From the NCBI RefSeq assembly GCF_051903065.1, contig NZ_CP178438.1: 64,000 nucleotides of DNA, one strand, 5' to 3'. The notes below the pieces were generated by a model that saw nothing but the letters and a program-made list of their open reading frames with translations, was not told the origin of the DNA and did not search any database. Below are positions 4,227 through 46,500 of the stretch, piece after piece. The stretch is from Escherichia coli. GTDB lineage: Bacteria; Pseudomonadota; Gammaproteobacteria; Enterobacterales; Enterobacteriaceae. The position numbers were made by a program, and so were the translations under genes. Each line of letters begins with the position of its first letter. The first letter of the stretch is position 1.

Positions 4227-4433
4227 TTATATATTGCTCTATTTTTGCAAATCAAATCACAAATAATCAAATAAGATCTTTAATTGAACTGTTTTGATTA
4301 CTACAGTGCACTTACCGAATACATACAGAGGCATTGCTTAGCGAAACACAAAATTTCCTGAGACATTATTAACGTCAGCAGAAGGTTCATGCATTGACAA
4401 CGGAAATGTACGCTTATGGAGGGCGTTCCGACG

Positions 4434-5759
4434 ATGTTTGCCAAATTCATAGATGTTATTCAAACGTTTTTAACTGAACCGGCAATTTTAATTGGTTTGC
4501 TGGTGGGTATTGGTTATGCCCTTGATAAGAAATCGCCAATAAAAATTATTACCGGCATGGTCAGCGCCATGGTGGGATTAATGATGGTGTTATTTGGTGG
4601 TTTCCAGTTTTCCGCAACATTTAAACCGGTAGCAGAAGCCGTAAGTAAAGCCTATGGTGTTCACGGATATTTAATGGATTCCTACGCAATGAAAGCGGCA
4701 ACGCAAATTGCACTGGGGGATAATTTTGGTTATGTCGGGTATGTATTTGTACTGGCGTTTTTTACCAACCTGCTGCTGGTATTATTTGGTCGGTATACTG
4801 GTGCCAAAGGGATATTTTTGACAGGGAATACCGGTGTTTCACATTCTCAGGCGGTATTATGGTTGATTGTCTTTTGGCTGGGTTTTAGCTGGACTACATC
4901 CATTATTATTGCCGGAATATTAACGGGTGTATTCTGGGCGTTCTCCACCACGCTCATTGTTAAGCCCATTGCCAAAGTTACCAAAGATGCCGGTTTTACC
5001 ATTGCTCATAACCAGATGTTGGGATTGTGGTTTTTCTCCAAATTCGCCCATAAATTTGGTGACCCTGAAAAGCACGATGCTGAAAACCTGAAACTTCCCG
5101 GGTGGCTGGCGATTTTTAACCATAACGTAACGGCTATCGCCATTGTGATGACGCTGTTTGTCGGTGGTTTCTTGCTATCAACGGGTATCGATAATGTCCA
5201 GTTAATGGCGAAAGGCAAGCCCTGGTACATCTATATCATCAACCTTGGCTTACAGTTCTCCATGTATATGGTCATTCTGCTGCAGGGTGTGCGCATGATG
5301 GTGGGCGAAATTAACGGTTCGTTTAAAGGCTGGCAAGATCGCTTTATTCCTAACGCTATTCCTGCTGTCGATGTTGCAGCGCTGTTACCTTTTTCACCCA
5401 ATGCCGCAACGTTAGGCTTCGTCTTCTGTACTTTTGGCACCATTTTTTCGATGGGGATATTATTACTGGTTCACAGCCCAATTATGGTATTGCCTGGCTT
5501 TGTACCTCTGTTTTTCTCTGGCGGTCCAATTGGCGTATTAGCAAACCGCATGGGCGGATACCGTTCCGTAATTATCTGTACGTTCTTGCTGGGTATTATT
5601 CAGACCTTCGGTACGGTGTGGGCTATTCCGTTAACCGGGCTTGCTGAAAATGGCGTCGGCTGGACAGGAATATTTGACTGGGCAACCGTATGGCCTGCTA
5701 TTTGTGAAGTTCTGAAATTTATCGCTGCAACATTCCATCTTGGTCCTTACGCGGGTTAA
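4434..5759 (+). CDS. PTS system EIIC component, L-ascorbate (UlaA/SgaT) family
   Basis: Multi-TM ORF with clear similarity to UlaA along its length (e.g. KLPGW, VRMxVGE, PGFxPxFFS motifs); start chosen at MFAKF (ORF track begins 4416). Confidence 0.8.
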   Translation: MFAKFIDVIQTFLTEPAILIGLLVGIGYALDKKSPIKIITGMVSAMVGLMMVLFGGFQFSATFKPVAEAVSKAYGVHGYLMDSYAMKAATQIALGDNFGYVGYVFVLAFFTNLLLVLFGRYTGAKGIFLTGNTGVSHSQAVLWLIVFWLGFSWTTSIIIAGILTGVFWAFSTTLIVKPIAKVTKDAGFTIAHNQMLGLWFFSKFAHKFGDPEKHDAENLKLPGWLAIFNHNVTAIAIVMTLFVGGFLLSTGIDNVQLMAKGKPWYIYIINLGLQFSMYMVILLQGVRMMVGEINGSFKGWQDRFIPNAIPAVDVAALLPFSPNAATLGFVFCTFGTIFSMGILLLVHSPIMVLPGFVPLFFSGGPIGVLANRMGGYRSVIICTFLLGIIQTFGTVWAIPLTGLAENGVGWTGIFDWATVWPAICEVLKFIAATFHLGPYAG

Positions 5760-5780
5760 TTAAATATTAAGGGTTTAAAA

Positions 5781-6101
5781 ATGAAAGATACAATTAATAT
5801 TCTGTTTGTCTGTGGTTACGGTGTAGGCAGTAGCGTTATGTTACAAACGGTCGTTAAAAAAGCGCTGACCAAATATGATTTCAAAGTTGAAATGGAACAT
5901 ACCGCCGCAGGTGAAGTCGGCGGGTTTACCGACTGGGCGGATATTTTTGCTATTTCCAAAAAATTACTCGATGTGGTTAGTCTTGACCCGAAACAAGGGC
6001 AATATTTGATTCCGATAGAGAATATTATGGACGGTGAAACTATTGGTCAGCAAATTTATGAAGTGGTTCAGCAACATTTTCCGCATTTAATTAATCAATA
6101 A
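5781..6101 (+). CDS. PTS system EIIB component (ascorbate/galactitol-type)
   Basis: 106-aa ORF with N-terminal phospho-cysteine loop ILFVCGYGVGSS like UlaB; immediately downstream of the EIIC gene. Confidence 0.8.
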   Translation: MKDTINILFVCGYGVGSSVMLQTVVKKALTKYDFKVEMEHTAAGEVGGFTDWADIFAISKKLLDVVSLDPKQGQYLIPIENIMDGETIGQQIYEVVQQHFPHLINQ

Positions 6102-22473: not shown

Positions 22474-24126
22474 TTACGCGCTCAACAGTTGCTTCATGTC
22501 TTCTTCAACAGTGGTGATAGAACGCAGGCCGAATTTCTCGTTCAGCACCGCCAGCAGATCTGGTGTCAGGAAACCAGGTGCAGTCGGGCCGGTGACGATA
22601 TTTTTCACGCCCAGAGAAAGCAGCGTCAGCAGAATGACAATCGCTTTCTGTTCAAACCAGGAGAGCACCAGCGACAGCGGCAGATCGTTGACACCGCAGC
22701 CCAGTTTTTCTGCCAGCGTAACCGCCAGAATAATTGCTGAGTAAGCATCGTTACACTGACCGGCATCCACCAGACGAGGCAGACCTTCGATATCGCCAAA
22801 CTCAAGTTTGTTAAAGCGATATTTACCACAGGCGAGAGTCAGGATCAGGCAGTCATCCGGCACGCTGGTGGCGAAATCGGTGAAGTAGTGACGTTCGCCG
22901 CGTGCGCCGTCACAGCCACCAAGCAGGAAGATATGACGCAGTTTTTCACGGCTCACCAGATCAATTAGCGTATCCGCTGCGCCAAGCAGCGTCTGGCGGC
23001 CAAAGCCCACGGTGATCAGGTGCGGAATTTCGCTGTATGGGAAGCCTGCCATTTGTTGCGCCTGGGCAATGACCGCAGAGAAATCTTCGCCATCCAGATG
23101 ACGCACGCCAGGCCAGCCAACGATGCTGCGGGTCCAGATACGATCGTCATAAGCGCCTACGGTTGGGTCGATGATGCAGTTCGAGGTCATCACGATGGGG
23201 CCAGGGAAACGAGCGAACTCCACTTGCTGATTCTGCCAGCCGCTGCCGTAGTTACCGACCAGATGCTTGAATTTACGCAGCTCCGGGTAGCCATGCGCAG
23301 GCAGCATTTCGCCGTGGGTGTAGACATTAACGCCCGTGCCTTCGGTCTGTTCCAGCAGGTTGTAGAGATCTTTGAGATCGTGACCGGAAATCAGGATGCA
23401 TTTACCCGCCGTCGCTTTGACGTTGACTTGGGTTGGCGTCGGGTGACCGTATTTACCGGTTTCGCCTGCATCCAGAATGCTCATCACTTTGAAGTTCATC
23501 TGGCCGATTTCCATTGAACACTCAAGAAGCGCGTTCATATCGGCAGGCCAGGTCCCCAGCCACGCCATGATTTTATGATACTGGGCATAAATATCGTTGT
23601 CGTATTGACCGAGAACGTGTGCGTGTTCCATATAGGCCGCCGCACCTTTCAGGCCATACAGGCACAGCAGACGCAGGCCGAGAATGTTTTCGCCAATCGC
23701 CGCTTTATCTTTGTTAGGGGTAAATTCTGCTGCCTGACGTTGCAGTTCGCCGAGATCGTCGCTCACCAGTTGCAGGTCAGCCATCGGGTTATCGACGCGG
23801 GCGTTGGCATCTACAGCCAGGCATTGTGCTTTCAGCGCCTCGCGCAAGGCAATCGCTTCACGAGCGTAGCCGACAATACGCGGAGAATCGAAGTTAACGT
23901 TGGTCAGGGTTGAGAAAAAGGCGCGTGGCGCGAAGCTGTCGACATCGTGGTTGATGATGCCGTATTCACGCGCTTTTACCGCCCAGGCAGAAAGCCCTTG
24001 CAGCGCCGCGATGAGTAAATCCTGAAGGTCAGAGGTTTCCGCCGTTTTACCACACATCCCCTGCGCGTATGAGCAGCCGTTTCCTGCCGGAGTACGGATA
24101 GTTTGTTCACATTGCACACAAAACAT
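22474..24126 (-). CDS. hcp: Hydroxylamine reductase / hybrid-cluster protein Hcp
   Basis: 550 aa from MFCVQCEQT (N-terminal Cys cluster); hcp-hcr operon arrangement. Confidence 0.93.
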
Positions 24127-33539: not shown

Positions 33540-35816
33540 ATGCTCAATCAAGAACTGGAACTCAGTTTAAATATGGCTTTCGCCAGAGCGCGCGAGCACC
33601 GTCATGAGTTTATGACCGTCGAGCACTTGTTACTGGCGCTGCTCAGTAACCCATCTGCCCGGGAGGCGCTGGAAGCGTGTTCTGTGGATTTGGTTGCGCT
33701 CCGTCAGGAACTGGAAGCCTTTATTGAACAAACCACACCCGTTCTGCCTGCCAGTGAAGAGGAGCGCGACACACAGCCGACGCTGAGTTTTCAGCGTGTA
33801 CTGCAACGTGCGGTCTTCCATGTCCAGTCCTCCGGTCGCAATGAGGTTACCGGTGCAAACGTTCTGGTCGCTATCTTTAGCGAACAGGAGTCGCAGGCGG
33901 CATATCTGTTGCGTAAACATGAAGTCAGCCGTCTCGATGTGGTGAACTTTATCTCTCATGGCACGCGTAAAGACGAGCCGACACAGTCTTCTGATCCTGG
34001 CAGCCAGCCAAACAGCGAAGAACAAGCTGGTGGGGAGGAACGTATGGAGAATTTCACGACGAACCTGAATCAGCTTGCGCGCGTGGGCGGAATCGACCCA
34101 CTGATTGGTCGTGAGAAGGAGCTGGAGCGTGCTATTCAGGTTCTCTGCCGTCGCCGTAAAAACAACCCGCTGCTGGTGGGGGAATCTGGTGTCGGTAAAA
34201 CCGCGATTGCAGAAGGTCTTGCCTGGCGAATTGTTCAGGGCGATGTGCCGGAAGTGATGGCTGACTGTACGATTTACTCTCTCGATATCGGTTCTCTGTT
34301 AGCGGGCACAAAATATCGCGGCGACTTTGAAAAACGTTTTAAAGCGTTGCTCAAGCAGCTGGAGCAGGACACTAACAGCATCCTGTTTATTGATGAGATC
34401 CACACCATTATCGGTGCGGGTGCAGCGTCTGGTGGTCAGGTCGATGCGGCTAACCTAATCAAACCGTTGCTCTCTAGCGGTAAAATTCGCGTAATTGGTT
34501 CGACAACCTATCAGGAGTTCAGCAACATTTTCGAGAAAGACCGTGCTCTGGCGCGTCGCTTCCAGAAAATTGATATTACTGAACCGTCGATCGAAGAAAC
34601 TGTTCAAATCATCAATGGCCTGAAACCGAAGTATGAAGCGCACCACGACGTGCGTTATACCGCAAAAGCGGTGCGTGCGGCGGTAGAGCTGGCGGTGAAA
34701 TACATTAACGATCGTCATCTGCCGGATAAAGCCATTGATGTTATCGACGAAGCGGGCGCTCGCGCACGTCTGATGCCGGTAAGCAAACGCAAGAAAACCG
34801 TTAATGTGGCGGATATTGAGTCCGTGGTGGCCCGTATTGCACGCATTCCAGAGAAGAGTGTTTCTCAGAGTGACCGCGATACCCTGAAAAACCTCGGCGA
34901 TCGCCTGAAAATGCTGGTCTTCGGTCAGGATAAAGCCATTGAGGCGCTGACTGAAGCCATTAAGATGGCGCGTGCAGGTTTAGGTCACGAACATAAACCG
35001 GTTGGTTCGTTCCTGTTTGCCGGCCCTACCGGGGTCGGGAAAACAGAGGTGACGGTACAGCTTTCGAAAGCGTTGGGCATTGAGCTTCTGCGCTTTGATA
35101 TGTCCGAGTATATGGAACGCCATACCGTCAGCCGTCTGATTGGTGCGCCTCCGGGATACGTTGGTTTTGATCAGGGCGGTTTGCTGACCGATGCGGTAAT
35201 CAAGCATCCACATGCGGTGCTGCTGCTGGACGAAATCGAGAAAGCGCATCCGGACGTGTTCAATATTCTGTTGCAGGTGATGGACAACGGTACGCTGACC
35301 GATAACAACGGACGCAAAGCGGACTTCCGTAACGTGGTGCTGGTGATGACCACCAACGCCGGGGTACGGGAAACTGAGCGCAAATCCATTGGTCTTATCC
35401 ACCAGGATAACAGCACCGATGCGATGGAAGAGATCAAGAAGATCTTTACACCGGAATTCCGTAACCGTCTCGACAACATTATCTGGTTCGATCATCTGTC
35501 AACTGACGTGATCCATCAGGTGGTGGATAAATTCATCGTCGAGTTGCAGGTTCAGCTGGATCAGAAAGGTGTTTCTCTGGAAGTGAGCCAGGAAGCGCGT
35601 AACTGGCTGGCCGAGAAAGGTTACGACCGGGCAATGGGCGCACGTCCGATGGCGCGTGTCATCCAGGACAACCTGAAAAAACCGCTTGCCAACGAACTGC
35701 TGTTTGGTTCGCTGGTGGACGGCGGTCAGGTCACCGTCGCGCTGGATAAAGAGAAAAATGAGCTGACTTACGGATTCCAGAGTGCACAAAAGCACAAGGC
35801 GGAAGCAGCGCATTAA
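33540..35816 (+). CDS. clpA: ATP-dependent Clp protease ATP-binding subunit ClpA
   Basis: 758 aa from [10 protein letters not shown]; two AAA+ modules (GESGVGKT and GPTGVGKT Walker A). Confidence 0.95.
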
Positions 35817-35840
35817 TCTGATTGTTAAGTAGGTTGGTGA

Positions 35841-35876
35841 AGTCCGTAATCTCGAAAGAGGTTACGGACTTTTTAT
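35841..35876 (+). terminator. clpA rho-independent terminator
   Basis: Hairpin agtccgtaatctcgaaagaggttacggact followed by TTTTT. Confidence 0.6.
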
Positions 35877-36028
35877 TTATGGGGTGGAGGAGGTTCAGAC
35901 CCTTTTTTTGATGATGATGGTTAGTTGTTGATAATTAGTGCTGCTGGAAGGTAAGGATAAAAAAGGGTGCTGCAGGAGAATGGGATGGTTTTGCTTTATT
36001 AACAACGGGCTAAACGTGTAGTATTTGA

Positions 36029-36176
36029 ATTCACTGCCGTACAGGCAGCTTAGAAAGCTGTATTCGGCAAATGAAGTGGATGTTGATGGTTCACTGCCGT
36101 ACAGGCAGCTTAGAAATTCACAGGTAACATACTCCACCCGCCCACCATGTTCACTGCCGTACAGACAGATAAAATG
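36029..36176. CRISPR. Orphan type I-F CRISPR array: 3 repeats (28 bp, third degenerate) and 2 spacers (32 bp each); no adjacent cas genes
   Basis: Repeats (G/A)TTCACTGCCGTACAGGCAGCTTAGAAA at 36029-36056 and 36089-36116, degenerate copy at 36149-36176; spacers at 36057-36088 and 36117-36148. Confidence 0.88.
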
Positions 36177-36177
36177 C

Positions 36178-36215
36178 GAAAAAAAAAGCTCGCACTTTCG
36201 TACGAGCTCTTCTTT
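36178..36215 (-). terminator. serW rho-independent terminator
   Basis: Hairpin agctcg...cgagct followed by a T-run on the minus strand. Confidence 0.55.
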
Positions 36216-36219
36216 AAAT

Positions 36220-36307
36220 ATGGCGGTGAGGGGGGGATTCGAACCCCCGATACGTTGCCGTATACACACTTTCCAGGCGTGCTCCTTCAGCCACTCGGAC
36301 ACCTCAC
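36220..36307 (-). tRNA. serW: tRNA-Ser (anticodon GGA)
   Basis: Reverse complement reads GGTGAGGTGTCCGAGTGGCTGAAGGAGCACGCCTGGAAAGTG...GGTTCGAATCCCCCCCTCACCGCCA, with long variable arm and encoded CCA end. Confidence 0.93.
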
Positions 36308-36561
36308 CAAATTGTTTTGCTGCCAAACCTCATGGGTGGCAACGGGGCGCTACTATAGGGAGTTGGAGTAAAACGGTCAAGAAGAATTTTAATGATAATT
36401 ATTGTTTGCTCATACTGTAAACAACTTGTGCAGTATATCTACATCGAGACAAGTTATGGACTTATACTTCCAAAGTACTTCATACATATCACAAAATAAA
36501 AAGGCCGGTTAAACCGACCTTTTACTCGTTCTTTCTCTTCGCCCATCAGGCGGTAAAACAA

Positions 36562-36783
<222 letters not shown>

Positions 36784-37064
36784 ATCCTCTGGGGTATCAC
36801 TACCGTAATTTGAACCGGCAAGATAATGCCGAAGTTCTGTAAATAAGTAAAGATTTGCGCGCTAAATCGCAACAAACAGGTTCGGCACATTACTCCGAAA
36901 ACACACGGCTAAGCCGCACCAAAAGCGCAACGTATAAGGGAGCGGTGAGATAAACGATGGGCGTTACCTGACGCGAAAAATTCCTTATCGGCAGCGGGGT
37001 AATGAGCGTAACCAACTCTGCGACCGCAATTATAACACTCTGGGGAGAAATGTGCCGAAAACAT

Positions 37065-37769
37065 TCATTCTTGTGGTGAAAACAAGCACCGTGGTACCCA
37101 GAAATTATTCGGCAATCGTCCGAGGCGCATTTGATTGAGATAATTAAGGTAATCCCGGCGGGGAATTTCGCAGGCACCAAGCGATGCTGTGTGATCGTTA
37201 AGGACCTGGCAGTCGATAAGCTTACCGCCATGACCGATAAATTCCTCACAGAATACCAGAAGCGCCGTTTTAGACGCATTTTCCATCCGGCTGAACATGG
37301 ACTCGCCACAAAATAGCGTTCCCTGGGCCACGCCGTACATACCGCCGACAAGCACATCTTCACGCCAGACTTCAATGGAGTGGGCATGGCCGAGTTCGTG
37401 AAGGCGATGGTAGGCTTCGACCACGCCACGTGTGATCCAGGTTCCTTCTTCGCGATCGCTGGCACAGCCTTCAATGACCTGACCAAAAGCGTAATTCAGC
37501 GTGACACGATAGGGCGAGCGTTTATGAAATCGCTTCATACTACGGCTGATATGCAGTGATTCTGGCCATAGCACCGCGCGGGGATCGGGCGACCACCAGA
37601 GGATGGGGTCGCCTGGAGAAAACCACGGAAAAATACCACGCTGATAAGCCATGAGCAGCCGTGCAGGGCTAAGATCGCCTCCCAGCGCCAGCAGACCGTT
37701 AGGCTCACGTAATGCGCCTTCCGGGGAAGGGAAGGCTATTGAATGGCGAGAAAGTTGAACCAGGCGCAT
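37065..37769 (-). CDS. aat: Leucyl/phenylalanyl-tRNA-protein transferase
   Basis: 234-aa ORF; conserved position upstream of cydC. Confidence 0.9.
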
Positions 37770-43563: not shown

Positions 43564-46500
43564 TTGAGCCAGGAATACACTGAAGACAAAGAAGTCACAT
43601 TGACAAAGTTAAGTAGCGGCCGCCGCCTTCTGGAGGCGTTGCTGATCCTTATTGTCCTGTTTGCCGTCTGGTTGATGGCTGCCTTACTAAGCTTTAACCC
43701 TTCGGACCCCAGCTGGTCGCAAACGGCCTGGCATGAACCTATCCATAATTTAGGTGGGATGCCCGGTGCGTGGTTGGCAGATACGCTGTTCTTTATTTTT
43801 GGCGTGATGGCTTACACCATTCCCGTCATTATTGTCGGCGGTTGTTGGTTTGCCTGGCGTCATCAGTCCAGCGACGAATACATTGATTATTTTGCCGTTT
43901 CGCTACGCATCATTGGCGTTTTGGCGCTCATCCTTACCTCCTGTGGTCTGGCGGCAATCAACGCTGACGATATCTGGTATTTTGCCTCCGGTGGCGTCAT
44001 TGGCAGCTTACTAAGTACTACGCTACAACCACTGCTACACAGTAGCGGGGGAACTATTGCGCTGCTCTGCGTTTGGGCTGCGGGCCTGACGCTGTTCACC
44101 GGTTGGTCATGGGTGACCATTGCTGAAAAACTCGGCGGCTGGATTTTAAACATTCTCACCTTCGCCAGTAATCGTACCCGTCGCGATGATACCTGGGTCG
44201 ATGAAGATGAATATGAAGATGACGAAGAGTATGAAGATGAAAACCACGGCAAACAGCATGAATCACGCCGTGCCCGTATTCTTCGCGGCGCGCTAGCGCG
44301 TCGTAAACGGTTGGCGGAAAAATTCATTAATCCGATGGGGCGGCAAACAGACGCTGCGTTGTTCTCCGGTAAGCGGATGGATGATGACGAAGAGATTACC
44401 TACACTGCACGCGGTGTGGCTGCCGACCCGGACGACGTCCTATTTTCGGGCAATCGTGCAACGCAGCCAGAATATGACGAATACGATCCATTATTAAACG
44501 GTGCGCCAATTACCGAACCTGTCGCTGTAGCAGCTGCTGCTACCACGGCGACACAAAGCTGGGCTGCGCCGGTTGAACCTGTGACTCAGACGCCGCCTGT
44601 TGCCTCTGTTGATGTTCCACCCTCGCAACCTACAGTAGCCTGGCAGCCTGTACCGGGTCCACAAACGGGAGAGCCGGTTATTGCTCCTGCACCGGAAGGT
44701 TACCCACAGCAGTCACAATATGCGCAGCCTGCAGTGCAATATAATGAGCCGCTGCAACAACCAGTACAGCCGCAGCAGCCGTATTATGCACCTGCAGCTG
44801 AACAACCTGCGCAACAACCTTACTACGCTCCTGCGGCGGAACAACCTGTTCAGCAACCGTATTACGCAACTGCGCCGGAACAGCCTGCACAACAGCCGTA
44901 TTATGCCCCTGTGCCAGAACAACCGGTGGCAGGTAACGCCTGGCAAGCCGAAGAGCAGCAATCCACTTTTGCTCCACAGTCTACATACCAGACTGAGCAA
45001 ACTTATCAGCAACCAGCCGCTCAGGAGCCGTTGTACCAACAGCCGCAACCTGTTGAACAGCAGCCTGTTGTGGAGCCTGAACCCGTTGTAGAAGAGACAA
45101 AACCCGCGCGTCCGCCGCTTTACTACTTTGAAGAAGTGGAAGAGAAGCGAGCCCGTGAACGTGAACAACTTGCGGCCTGGTATCAACCGATTCCAGAACC
45201 GGTTAAAGAACCAGAACCGATCAAATCTTCGCTGAAAGCACCTTCTGTTGCAGCAGTACCTCCAGTAGAAGCCGCTGCCGCTGTTTCTCCGCTGGCATCT
45301 GGCGTGAAAAAAGCGACACTGGCGACGGGGGCTGCCGCAACCGTTGCCGCGCCAGTCTTCAGTCTGGCAAATAGCGGTGGACCGCGTCCGCAGGTCAAAG
45401 AGGGGATTGGCCCGCAGTTGCCACGACCGAAACGTATCCGCGTGCCAACTCGTCGTGAATTGGCGTCTTACGGTATTAAGCTGCCCTCACAGCGTGCGGC
45501 GGAAGAAAAAGCCCGTGAAGCCCAGCGCAATCAGTACGATTCTGGCGATCAGTACAACGATGATGAAATCGATGCGATGCAGCAGGATGAACTGGCACGT
45601 CAGTTCGCCCAGACACAGCAGCAACGCTATGGCGAACAGTATCAACATGATGTGCCCGTAAACGCAGAAGATGCAGATGCTGCGGCAGAGGCTGAACTGG
45701 CTCGTCAGTTTGCGCAAACTCAACAACAACGTTATTCCGGCGAACAACCGGCTGGGGCGAATCCGTTCTCGCTGGATGATTTTGAATTTTCACCAATGAA
45801 AGCGTTGCTGGATGATGGTCCACACGAACCGCTGTTTACGCCAATTGTTGAACCTGTACAGCAGCCGCAACAACCGGTTGCGCCACAGCAGCAATATCAG
45901 CAGCCGCAACAGCCGGTTGCGCCGCAGCCGCAGTATCAGCAGCCACAACAGCAGGTTGCGCCGCAGCCACAATATCAGCAGCCGCAACAACCGGTTGCGC
46001 CACAGCAGCAATATCAGCAGCCGCAACAACCGGTTGCGCCGCAGCCGCAGTATCAACAGCCGCAACAACCGGTTGCACCGCAGCCGCAGTATCAGCAGCC
46101 ACAACAGCCAGTTGCGCCACAGCCGCAGGATACCCTGCTTCATCCGCTGTTGATGCGTAATGGCGACAGCCGTCCGTTGCATAAACCGACGACGCCGCTG
46201 CCTTCTCTGGATTTGCTGACACCGCCGCCGAGCGAAGTGGAGCCGGTAGATACCTTTGCGCTTGAACAAATGGCGCGTCTGGTGGAAGCACGTCTGGCTG
46301 ATTTCCGTATTAAAGCCGATGTCGTCAATTACTCTCCGGGGCCGGTTATCACTCGCTTTGAACTTAACCTGGCACCGGGCGTAAAAGCGGCGCGCATTTC
46401 TAACTTGTCACGGGACCTTGCCCGTTCACTTTCGACGGTGGCGGTGCGTGTCGTTGAAGTTATTCCTGGCAAACCCTATGTAGGTCTGGAGTTACCAAAT

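Follow-up and report, generated by a model that had tools for sequence, protein, structure and literature searches.

Orphan type I-F CRISPR arrays in the clpA-serW/infA region of Escherichia coli have been described before, reportedly under the name CRISPR4 by Díez-Villaseñor and Almendros and under the name CRISPR3 by Touchon and Rocha. The array examined here is one of these known orphan type I-F "anti-cas" or "anti-CRISPR" arrays, known in kind and largely in detail. Touchon and Rocha (2010) found that CRISPR3 spacers match only Cas1, Cas3, and Csy2 of the array's own subtype, in genomes lacking those genes, proposed that the array keeps out elements that bring a functional system with them, and argued that spacer conservation and phylogeny favour selection (PMC2886076). 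Subsequent work by Almendros, Guzmán, García-Martínez, and Mojica (Nat Microbiol 1:16081; Almendros 2016), as summarised in a review from the Mojica laboratory (PMC8616872), showed constitutive expression of native orphan arrays, their interference with plasmids that carry all of the I-F cas genes, and the primed acquisition of additional spacers that they set off. The statement in the first-pass annotation that arrays at this locus carry spacers against I-F cas genes is correct and corresponds to a published observation (PMC2886076; Almendros 2016 as reported in PMC8616872).

Within the 64-kb stretch of E. coli DNA that we analysed (the window), the array occupies positions 36029-36176 on the plus strand and consists of three 28-bp type I-F repeats around two 32-nt spacers, with repeat start-to-start distances of 60 and 60 bp and an exact 28/32-nt periodicity. 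Repeat 1 (R1; 36029-36056, +; ATTCACTGCCGTACAGGCAGCTTAGAAA) carries one substitution, G1A, relative to the 28-bp I-F consensus used to define membership, GTTCACTGCCGTA(C/T)AGGCAGCTTAGAAA, and this substitution in the first repeat is present in only a handful of genomes. Repeat 2 (R2; 36089-36116, +; GTTCACTGCCGTACAGGCAGCTTAGAAA) equals the consensus and is identical to repeats in the arrays of strains LF82 and Rb-50. The terminal repeat 3 (R3; 36149-36176, +; GTTCACTGCCGTACAGACAGATAAAATG) is degenerate, with six mismatches; its first 20 nt are repeat-like except for G17A, and its last 8 nt have diverged. Between the repeats lie spacer 1 (S1; 36057-36088, +; GCTGTATTCGGCAAATGAAGTGGATGTTGATG) and spacer 2 (S2; 36117-36148, +; TTCACAGGTAACATACTCCACCCGCCCACCAT), both directed against cas1f. 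With the Rfam family CRISPR-DR4 (RF01317; gathering score, 35 bits), R1 scored 47.0 bits (E = 5e-9) and R2 50.1 bits (E = 5e-10), while R3 reached 20 bits, under threshold, and a fuzzy scan allowing up to 8 mismatches returned no further repeat copies in the 64-kb window. The initial placement of the repeats and of two 32-bp spacers was accurate to the base; its description of two canonical repeats plus a degenerate third holds for the third repeat but not for both of the others, since R1 carries G1A and only R2 is strictly canonical.

The hairpin CUGCC-GUACA-GGCAG of R1 and R2, at repeat positions 6-20, folds at -8.6 kcal/mol and is the predicted 5-bp Cas6f/Csy4 stem-loop. R3 folds at only -1.4 kcal/mol, no better than shuffled sequence; G17A opens its C9-G17 pair. 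By position, the S1 crRNA is predicted to take its 5' handle, CUUAGAAA, from R1 (36029-36056, +) and its 3' hairpin from R2 (36089-36116, +), which would also furnish the S2 crRNA with a 5' handle. The locus shows the consensus repeat, the 32-nt spacers at 60-bp spacing, the stem-loop (in R1 and R2), and the A/T-rich leader of a type I-F array. The interval from clpA to infA is free of cas ORFs, and because the adjacent I-F cas operon is missing, the array is classed as an orphan.

The surrounding region is E. coli core chromosome, with the gene order macAB-cspD-clpS-clpA, array, serW-infA-aat-cydCD, and the window is 99.988% identical to strain ECNB21-M121 over 42.2 kb. The upstream core gene clpA (33540-35816, +; an ORF with RefSeq annotation mapped from ECNB21-M121) has its own intrinsic terminator (35839-35872, +), an inverted repeat forming a 15-pair terminator-like hairpin followed by a T-run, which implies that transcription of the array has to start at a promoter of its own. 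Between this terminator and R1 lies the A/T-rich CRISPR leader (35873-36028, +), recognised by its similarity to the clpA-R1 regions of LF82, Rb-50, and K-12; across the 212 nt from clpA to R1, identity is 97.2% with K-12, 91.5% with the cas-positive LF82, and 86.4% with Rb-50. The leader contains a sigma-70-like site (TTGATG-16-GATAAT; 35908-35935), a weak candidate, since three such sites were found against 1.0 expected. Downstream, R3 is separated from serW by a 44-nt gap (36177-36220, assigned to neither strand) that alignment with LF82 resolves into a junction and the serW terminator hairpin, at which a terminator scan called no plus-strand terminator. The gene serW itself, encoding tRNA-Ser(GGA), occupies 36221-36308 on the minus strand (ARAGORN; Rfam tRNA, 53.8 bits) and is followed by the downstream core gene infA (36562-36780, -; an ORF with RefSeq annotation mapped from ECNB21-M121). 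These coordinates bear out the flanks originally named, clpA on one side and serW/infA on the other.

Several annotations at this site call for comment. The ORFs at 36025-36420 (+) and 35895-36326 (-) run through CRISPR repeats and the tRNA gene and were treated as spurious. In several genomes, RefSeq places a 132-aa "hypothetical protein," WP_012602745.1, across the orphan array (for example, at 418-816 of the 118UI locus); the equivalent window ORFs, which also overlap serW, are almost certainly spurious. A different annotation is found in ECONIH4 (locus positions 488-708) and IAI39 (488-710), where an element of about 178 bp labelled "RtT sRNA" lies between the terminal repeat and serW; it duplicates the serW terminator and is absent from the window.

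Comparison with complete I-F loci shows what the window shares with them and what it lacks. In LF82 and Rb-50, the site reads clpA, leader, array, and cas1f-cas3f-csy1-csy2-csy3-cas6f, and in LF82 serW, a second array, and infA come after cas6f. The arrays of both strains are oriented as that of the window, with the leader on the clpA side, transcription toward cas1f, and a degenerate last repeat beside cas1f. Site, leader, repeat, and protospacer-adjacent motif (PAM) are common to the window and the complete loci of LF82, NU14, and Rb-50; the window differs in being without the 8.3-kb cas1f-cas6f block and without the second array between serW and infA. Its array holds two spacers targeting cas1f, whereas the arrays of complete loci hold 9-22 spacers targeting plasmids. 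From about 36181, within the serW terminator, the window is again homologous to the LF82 sequence that lies downstream of cas6f, and the entire cas1f-cas6f block is therefore absent between R3 and that point. No cas remnants were found between R3 and serW in the alignment with LF82, and a stretch of about 10 nt at the junction, ATAAAATGCG, is not matched in that strain. In Rb-50 (locus positions 20451-24032), yehD-type fimbrial genes follow the I-F cas operon in place of serW and the second array, an arrangement that points to a putative rearrangement or insertion downstream of cas6f.

The nearest relatives of the window array are other orphans. In common with orphan CRISPR4 arrays, it has the clpA-serW/infA location, a 28-bp I-F repeat, a conserved leader, and a degenerate last repeat; like them, it lacks cas genes, and its spacers match I-F cas genes beside a CC/GG PAM. 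It is of the same kind as these arrays and differs in its rarer S1-S2 pair and its G1A first repeat. In the mini-array of K-12 MG1655, S2 and the degenerate terminal repeat with its G17A change are identical to those of the window, and the leader is 97.2% identical; the window array differs from it by one extra leader-proximal unit, R1 plus S1.

Orphan status was also considered at the genome level. There are no cas genes at the clpA-infA locus or elsewhere in the 64-kb window, and the three closest complete genomes (ECNB21-M121, 23CRST027, and 23CRST031) were used as proxies for the rest of the chromosome. Because a single 28-nt repeat falls below the megablast E-value limit, which hides other I-F arrays, the proxies were queried with a chimera in which LF82 cas1f and csy3, two of the six cas genes, were appended to window positions 35000-37200. 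The window segment alone matched 3, 2, and 2 places in ECNB21-M121, 23CRST027, and 23CRST031, respectively, and the chimera still matched 3, 2, and 2; the unchanged counts mean that no E. coli-type cas1f or csy3 is present anywhere in the three proxy genomes, in a test that would miss divergent I-F operons (below about 85% identity). Together with the absence of any cas ORF in the 44 nt between R3 and serW, this result supports the initial designation of the locus as an orphan I-F array without cas genes between clpA and serW.

Whether the two spacers match I-F cas genes had been left open by the first-pass annotation, and the answer is that both match cas1f beside a CC PAM. In searches with each of the two spacers across 5,426 complete E. 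coli genomes, every significant match besides copies of the array was in cas1f. S1 matches the cas1f of Rb-50 at 32/32 positions (E = 1e-7 against 28 Gb), the LF82/NU14-type allele at 31/32 (mismatch at position 10), and a third allele, from CFSAN064035, at 29/32 (mismatches at positions 10, 13, and 28). All of these mismatches are outside the seed, which is intact against all three allele classes examined. S2 matches cas1f of LF82 at 30/32 (mismatches at positions 4 and 6) and that of Rb-50 at 29/32 (positions 4, 6, and 10); the mismatch at position 4 falls in the seed and was found against every cas1f allele examined. Judging from the counts in each identity band, a perfect S1 target apparently occurs in a single sequenced genome, Rb-50. 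None of the three allele classes sampled matches S2 perfectly, and the identity bands leave no room for such an allele. The earlier alternative that the spacers would have no protospacer anywhere can be set aside.

The S1 protospacer is nt 276-307 of cas1f on the sense strand and the S2 protospacer nt 98-129 on the antisense strand, so that the two lie 147 bp apart on opposite strands of the gene. CC precedes both protospacers on the spacer-identical strand; read on the target strand, this is 5'-protospacer-GG-3' at the leader-proximal end. PAM and orientation are thus those described for E. coli I-F by Almendros (2012), together with an active system (PMC3506596). The third PAM position is C for S1 and T for S2, in agreement with the reported exclusion of G at this position from natural E. 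coli I-F protospacers (PMC3506596). The array combines the clpA-serW/infA site with two spacers that match cas1f next to a 5' CC, as expected of a CRISPR4 anti-cas array.

A search of the spacers against cas operons, plasmids, phages, and the P2-like prophage, proposed when the array was first noticed, yielded a match in cas1f only. No match of S1 or S2 beyond chance was found in 50,697 phage records or, among 72,556 plasmid records, in true plasmids (distant mode, E up to 10 in both cases), the chance matches being 18-28 nt long. Two E. coli records filed as plasmids (0.73 and 4.9 Mb) do match the spacers and are read as probable chromosomal copies of the array itself. Within the 64-kb window, the part of the P2-like prophage that it contains among the rest, the spacers match only themselves at up to 3 mismatches, and the remaining E. 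coli matches (25/29 in a glycosyltransferase gene, E = 2) are taken as chance. No plasmid-borne cas1f with S1 or S2 protospacers was present in the 72,556-record plasmid collection, and the presumed invading vehicle was not observed there.

The left end of the prophage (60153-64000) abuts pflA and encodes, by PHROGs assignment, an integrase (60153-61148, -), a C-type repressor (61242-61601, -), a Cox-like regulator (61628-62014, +), a replication-initiation-like protein, and a DksA-like zinc-finger protein. ECNB21-M121 has pflB where the window has the prophage, and collinearity between the two stops at window position 60065. At about 5255-5826, ECNB21-M121 has an IS1A that splits a PTS IIC gene; the window is without IS1A, and its PTS IIC ORF (4416-5759) is intact at 447 aa. 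Self-matches in blastn also revealed diverged internal tandem repeats in ftsK (45859-46128), which are 89-92% identical at offsets that are multiples of 39 bp.

Across the complete E. coli genomes, the target is far rarer than one of the spacers directed against it. The gene cas1f occurs in 241 of the 5,426 genomes, always on the chromosome (201 of LF82 type and 40 at about 96% identity), and S2 or its 1-nt variant, the form found in O157 and IAI39, occurs in about 2,320 (about 43%). The K-12 array has the structure R-S2-Rdeg, REL606 and many other strains also carry S2, and S2 is the widespread ancestral spacer of the locus. R3 of the window is the terminal repeat of K-12, with G17A; O157 and IAI39 keep G17. 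Arrays with the S1-S2 pair are rare, numbering about 39 of the 5,426 genomes at no less than 98.6% identity. Elsewhere, S1 is found in the 118UI array, Sa-S1-Sc, whose other two spacers match cas3f, and in IAI39 a spacer against cas3f precedes S2; the cas3f protospacers of both strains carry CC in the Rb-50 allele.

Taken with the published work, these observations favour, with a probability of roughly 0.8, a model in which the array is dormant until a cognate I-F operon enters and then turns that operon against itself. A promoter in the leader would drive a short pre-crRNA, as published work suggests and as the weak sigma-70-like site would allow, and the transcript would probably end at the hairpin of the serW terminator, if, as may be the case, this hairpin also works on the plus strand. 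Without Cas6f and the Csy complex, this transcript would be inert. Should a mobile element or recombination bring in an E. coli-type I-F operon, the incoming Cas6f would cut the resident transcript at the R1 and R2 hairpins, the Csy complex would load anti-cas1f crRNA, notably that of S1, and Cas2/3 would degrade the incoming DNA starting at cas1f, with primed adaptation adding further spacers. Under the combined effect of cas1f-directed degradation and primed adaptation, the model holds, the I-F system could not establish itself.

The two spacers are unlikely to contribute equally to such a response. S1 has the R1 handle, the R2 hairpin, and a perfect seed against three allele classes, and on these sequence features it is predicted to be a fully competent guide. 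S2 is predicted to be impaired, both by the seed mismatch at position 4 and by the opening of the R3 hairpin through G17A, and it would for these reasons act mainly as a primer, at best. The most conserved spacer of the locus may be poorly functional in this lineage.

The arrangement of the protospacers bears on where S1 came from. In I-F priming, new spacers directed at the non-target strand are concentrated near the protospacer that did the priming, in the 5' direction of this strand (PMC4117759). The non-target strand of S2 is the cas1f antisense strand, whose 5' direction leads to higher gene coordinates, and S1 targets this antisense strand 147 bp from the S2 protospacer in the 5' direction (the PAM side). 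S1 is leader-proximal and hence the newer spacer. This geometry fits the capture of S1 by S2-primed adaptation from an Rb-50-type allele, putatively when an I-F operon once entered the cell and failed to establish itself. A K-12-type cell whose sole spacer was S2, decayed and mismatched in its seed, would have received an Rb-50-type operon, S2 would have primed the acquisition of S1, and the operon would have been destroyed, leaving a natural record of anti-cas immunity. We offer this history tentatively, considering it possible but somewhat doubtful. If true, the S1-S2 lineage was left with a refreshed, competent guide, and every invasion that fails in nature would give an orphan array the chance to be renewed. 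The presence of S1 in another array context, that of 118UI, means that S1 has more than one history and that priming from S2 to S1 is one of several possibilities; S1 may instead have been lost in K-12, or the arrays may have recombined.

The principal rival to present anti-cas function is that the array is an inert fossil, the view of Díez-Villaseñor (2010) as cited in PMC2886076. Self-targeting spacers against the cell's own cas1f would have selected for deletion of cas1f-cas6f, and the mini-array would be a neutral scar. The array does sit exactly at the cas-proximal array position, with the cas block cleanly missing from R3 to the serW terminator, and both R3 (G17A) and S2 (positions 4 and 6 against extant alleles) appear to be decaying, R1 being substituted as well (G1A). 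A neutral scar is nevertheless hard to reconcile with the fact that about 43% of complete genomes, from various lineages, retain S2 or the 1-nt variant, given that short arrays are easily lost, and with an S1 whose seed and PAM are intact against all cas1f alleles examined. Conservation and phylogeny were likewise held to favour selection (PMC2886076), and orphan arrays experimentally blocked I-F cas plasmids, as the review reports (PMC8616872). We therefore regard the purely inert state as unlikely, noting that fossil origin and present anti-cas function are not mutually exclusive.

Far less probable still is that the array serves a foreign effector, such as an I-F system carried on a phage or plasmid or an I-F3 CRISPR-associated transposon, or acts as a host-regulatory small RNA. 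The array has its own leader, and CRISPR-associated transposons are reported to co-opt host arrays (PMC11300857); the spacers, however, match nothing in the window, in phages, or in true plasmids, their only non-cas matches in E. coli are the chance ones in the glycosyltransferase gene, and no foreign effector is seen in the 64-kb window. Finally, the notion of a chance or other non-CRISPR tandem repeat, suggested by the presence of only three copies, one of them degenerate, is ruled out by two copies above the CRISPR-DR4 gathering score, the exact periodicity, the repeat identity with LF82 and Rb-50, and the PAM-flanked protospacers of both spacers in cas1f.

In sum, anti-cas function being the preferred reading, this locus is a textbook case of a CRISPR array acting, now or formerly, against its own cognate cas genes. 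Such an anti-cas array helps to account for the absence of the I-F system from about 95% of E. coli genomes, alongside the presence of an anti-cas1f spacer in about 43%. To this picture the present instance adds small details: a rare S1-S2 pair whose arrangement fits natural primed adaptation, and an array in which S2 and the terminal repeat appear to be decaying while S1 would remain competent.
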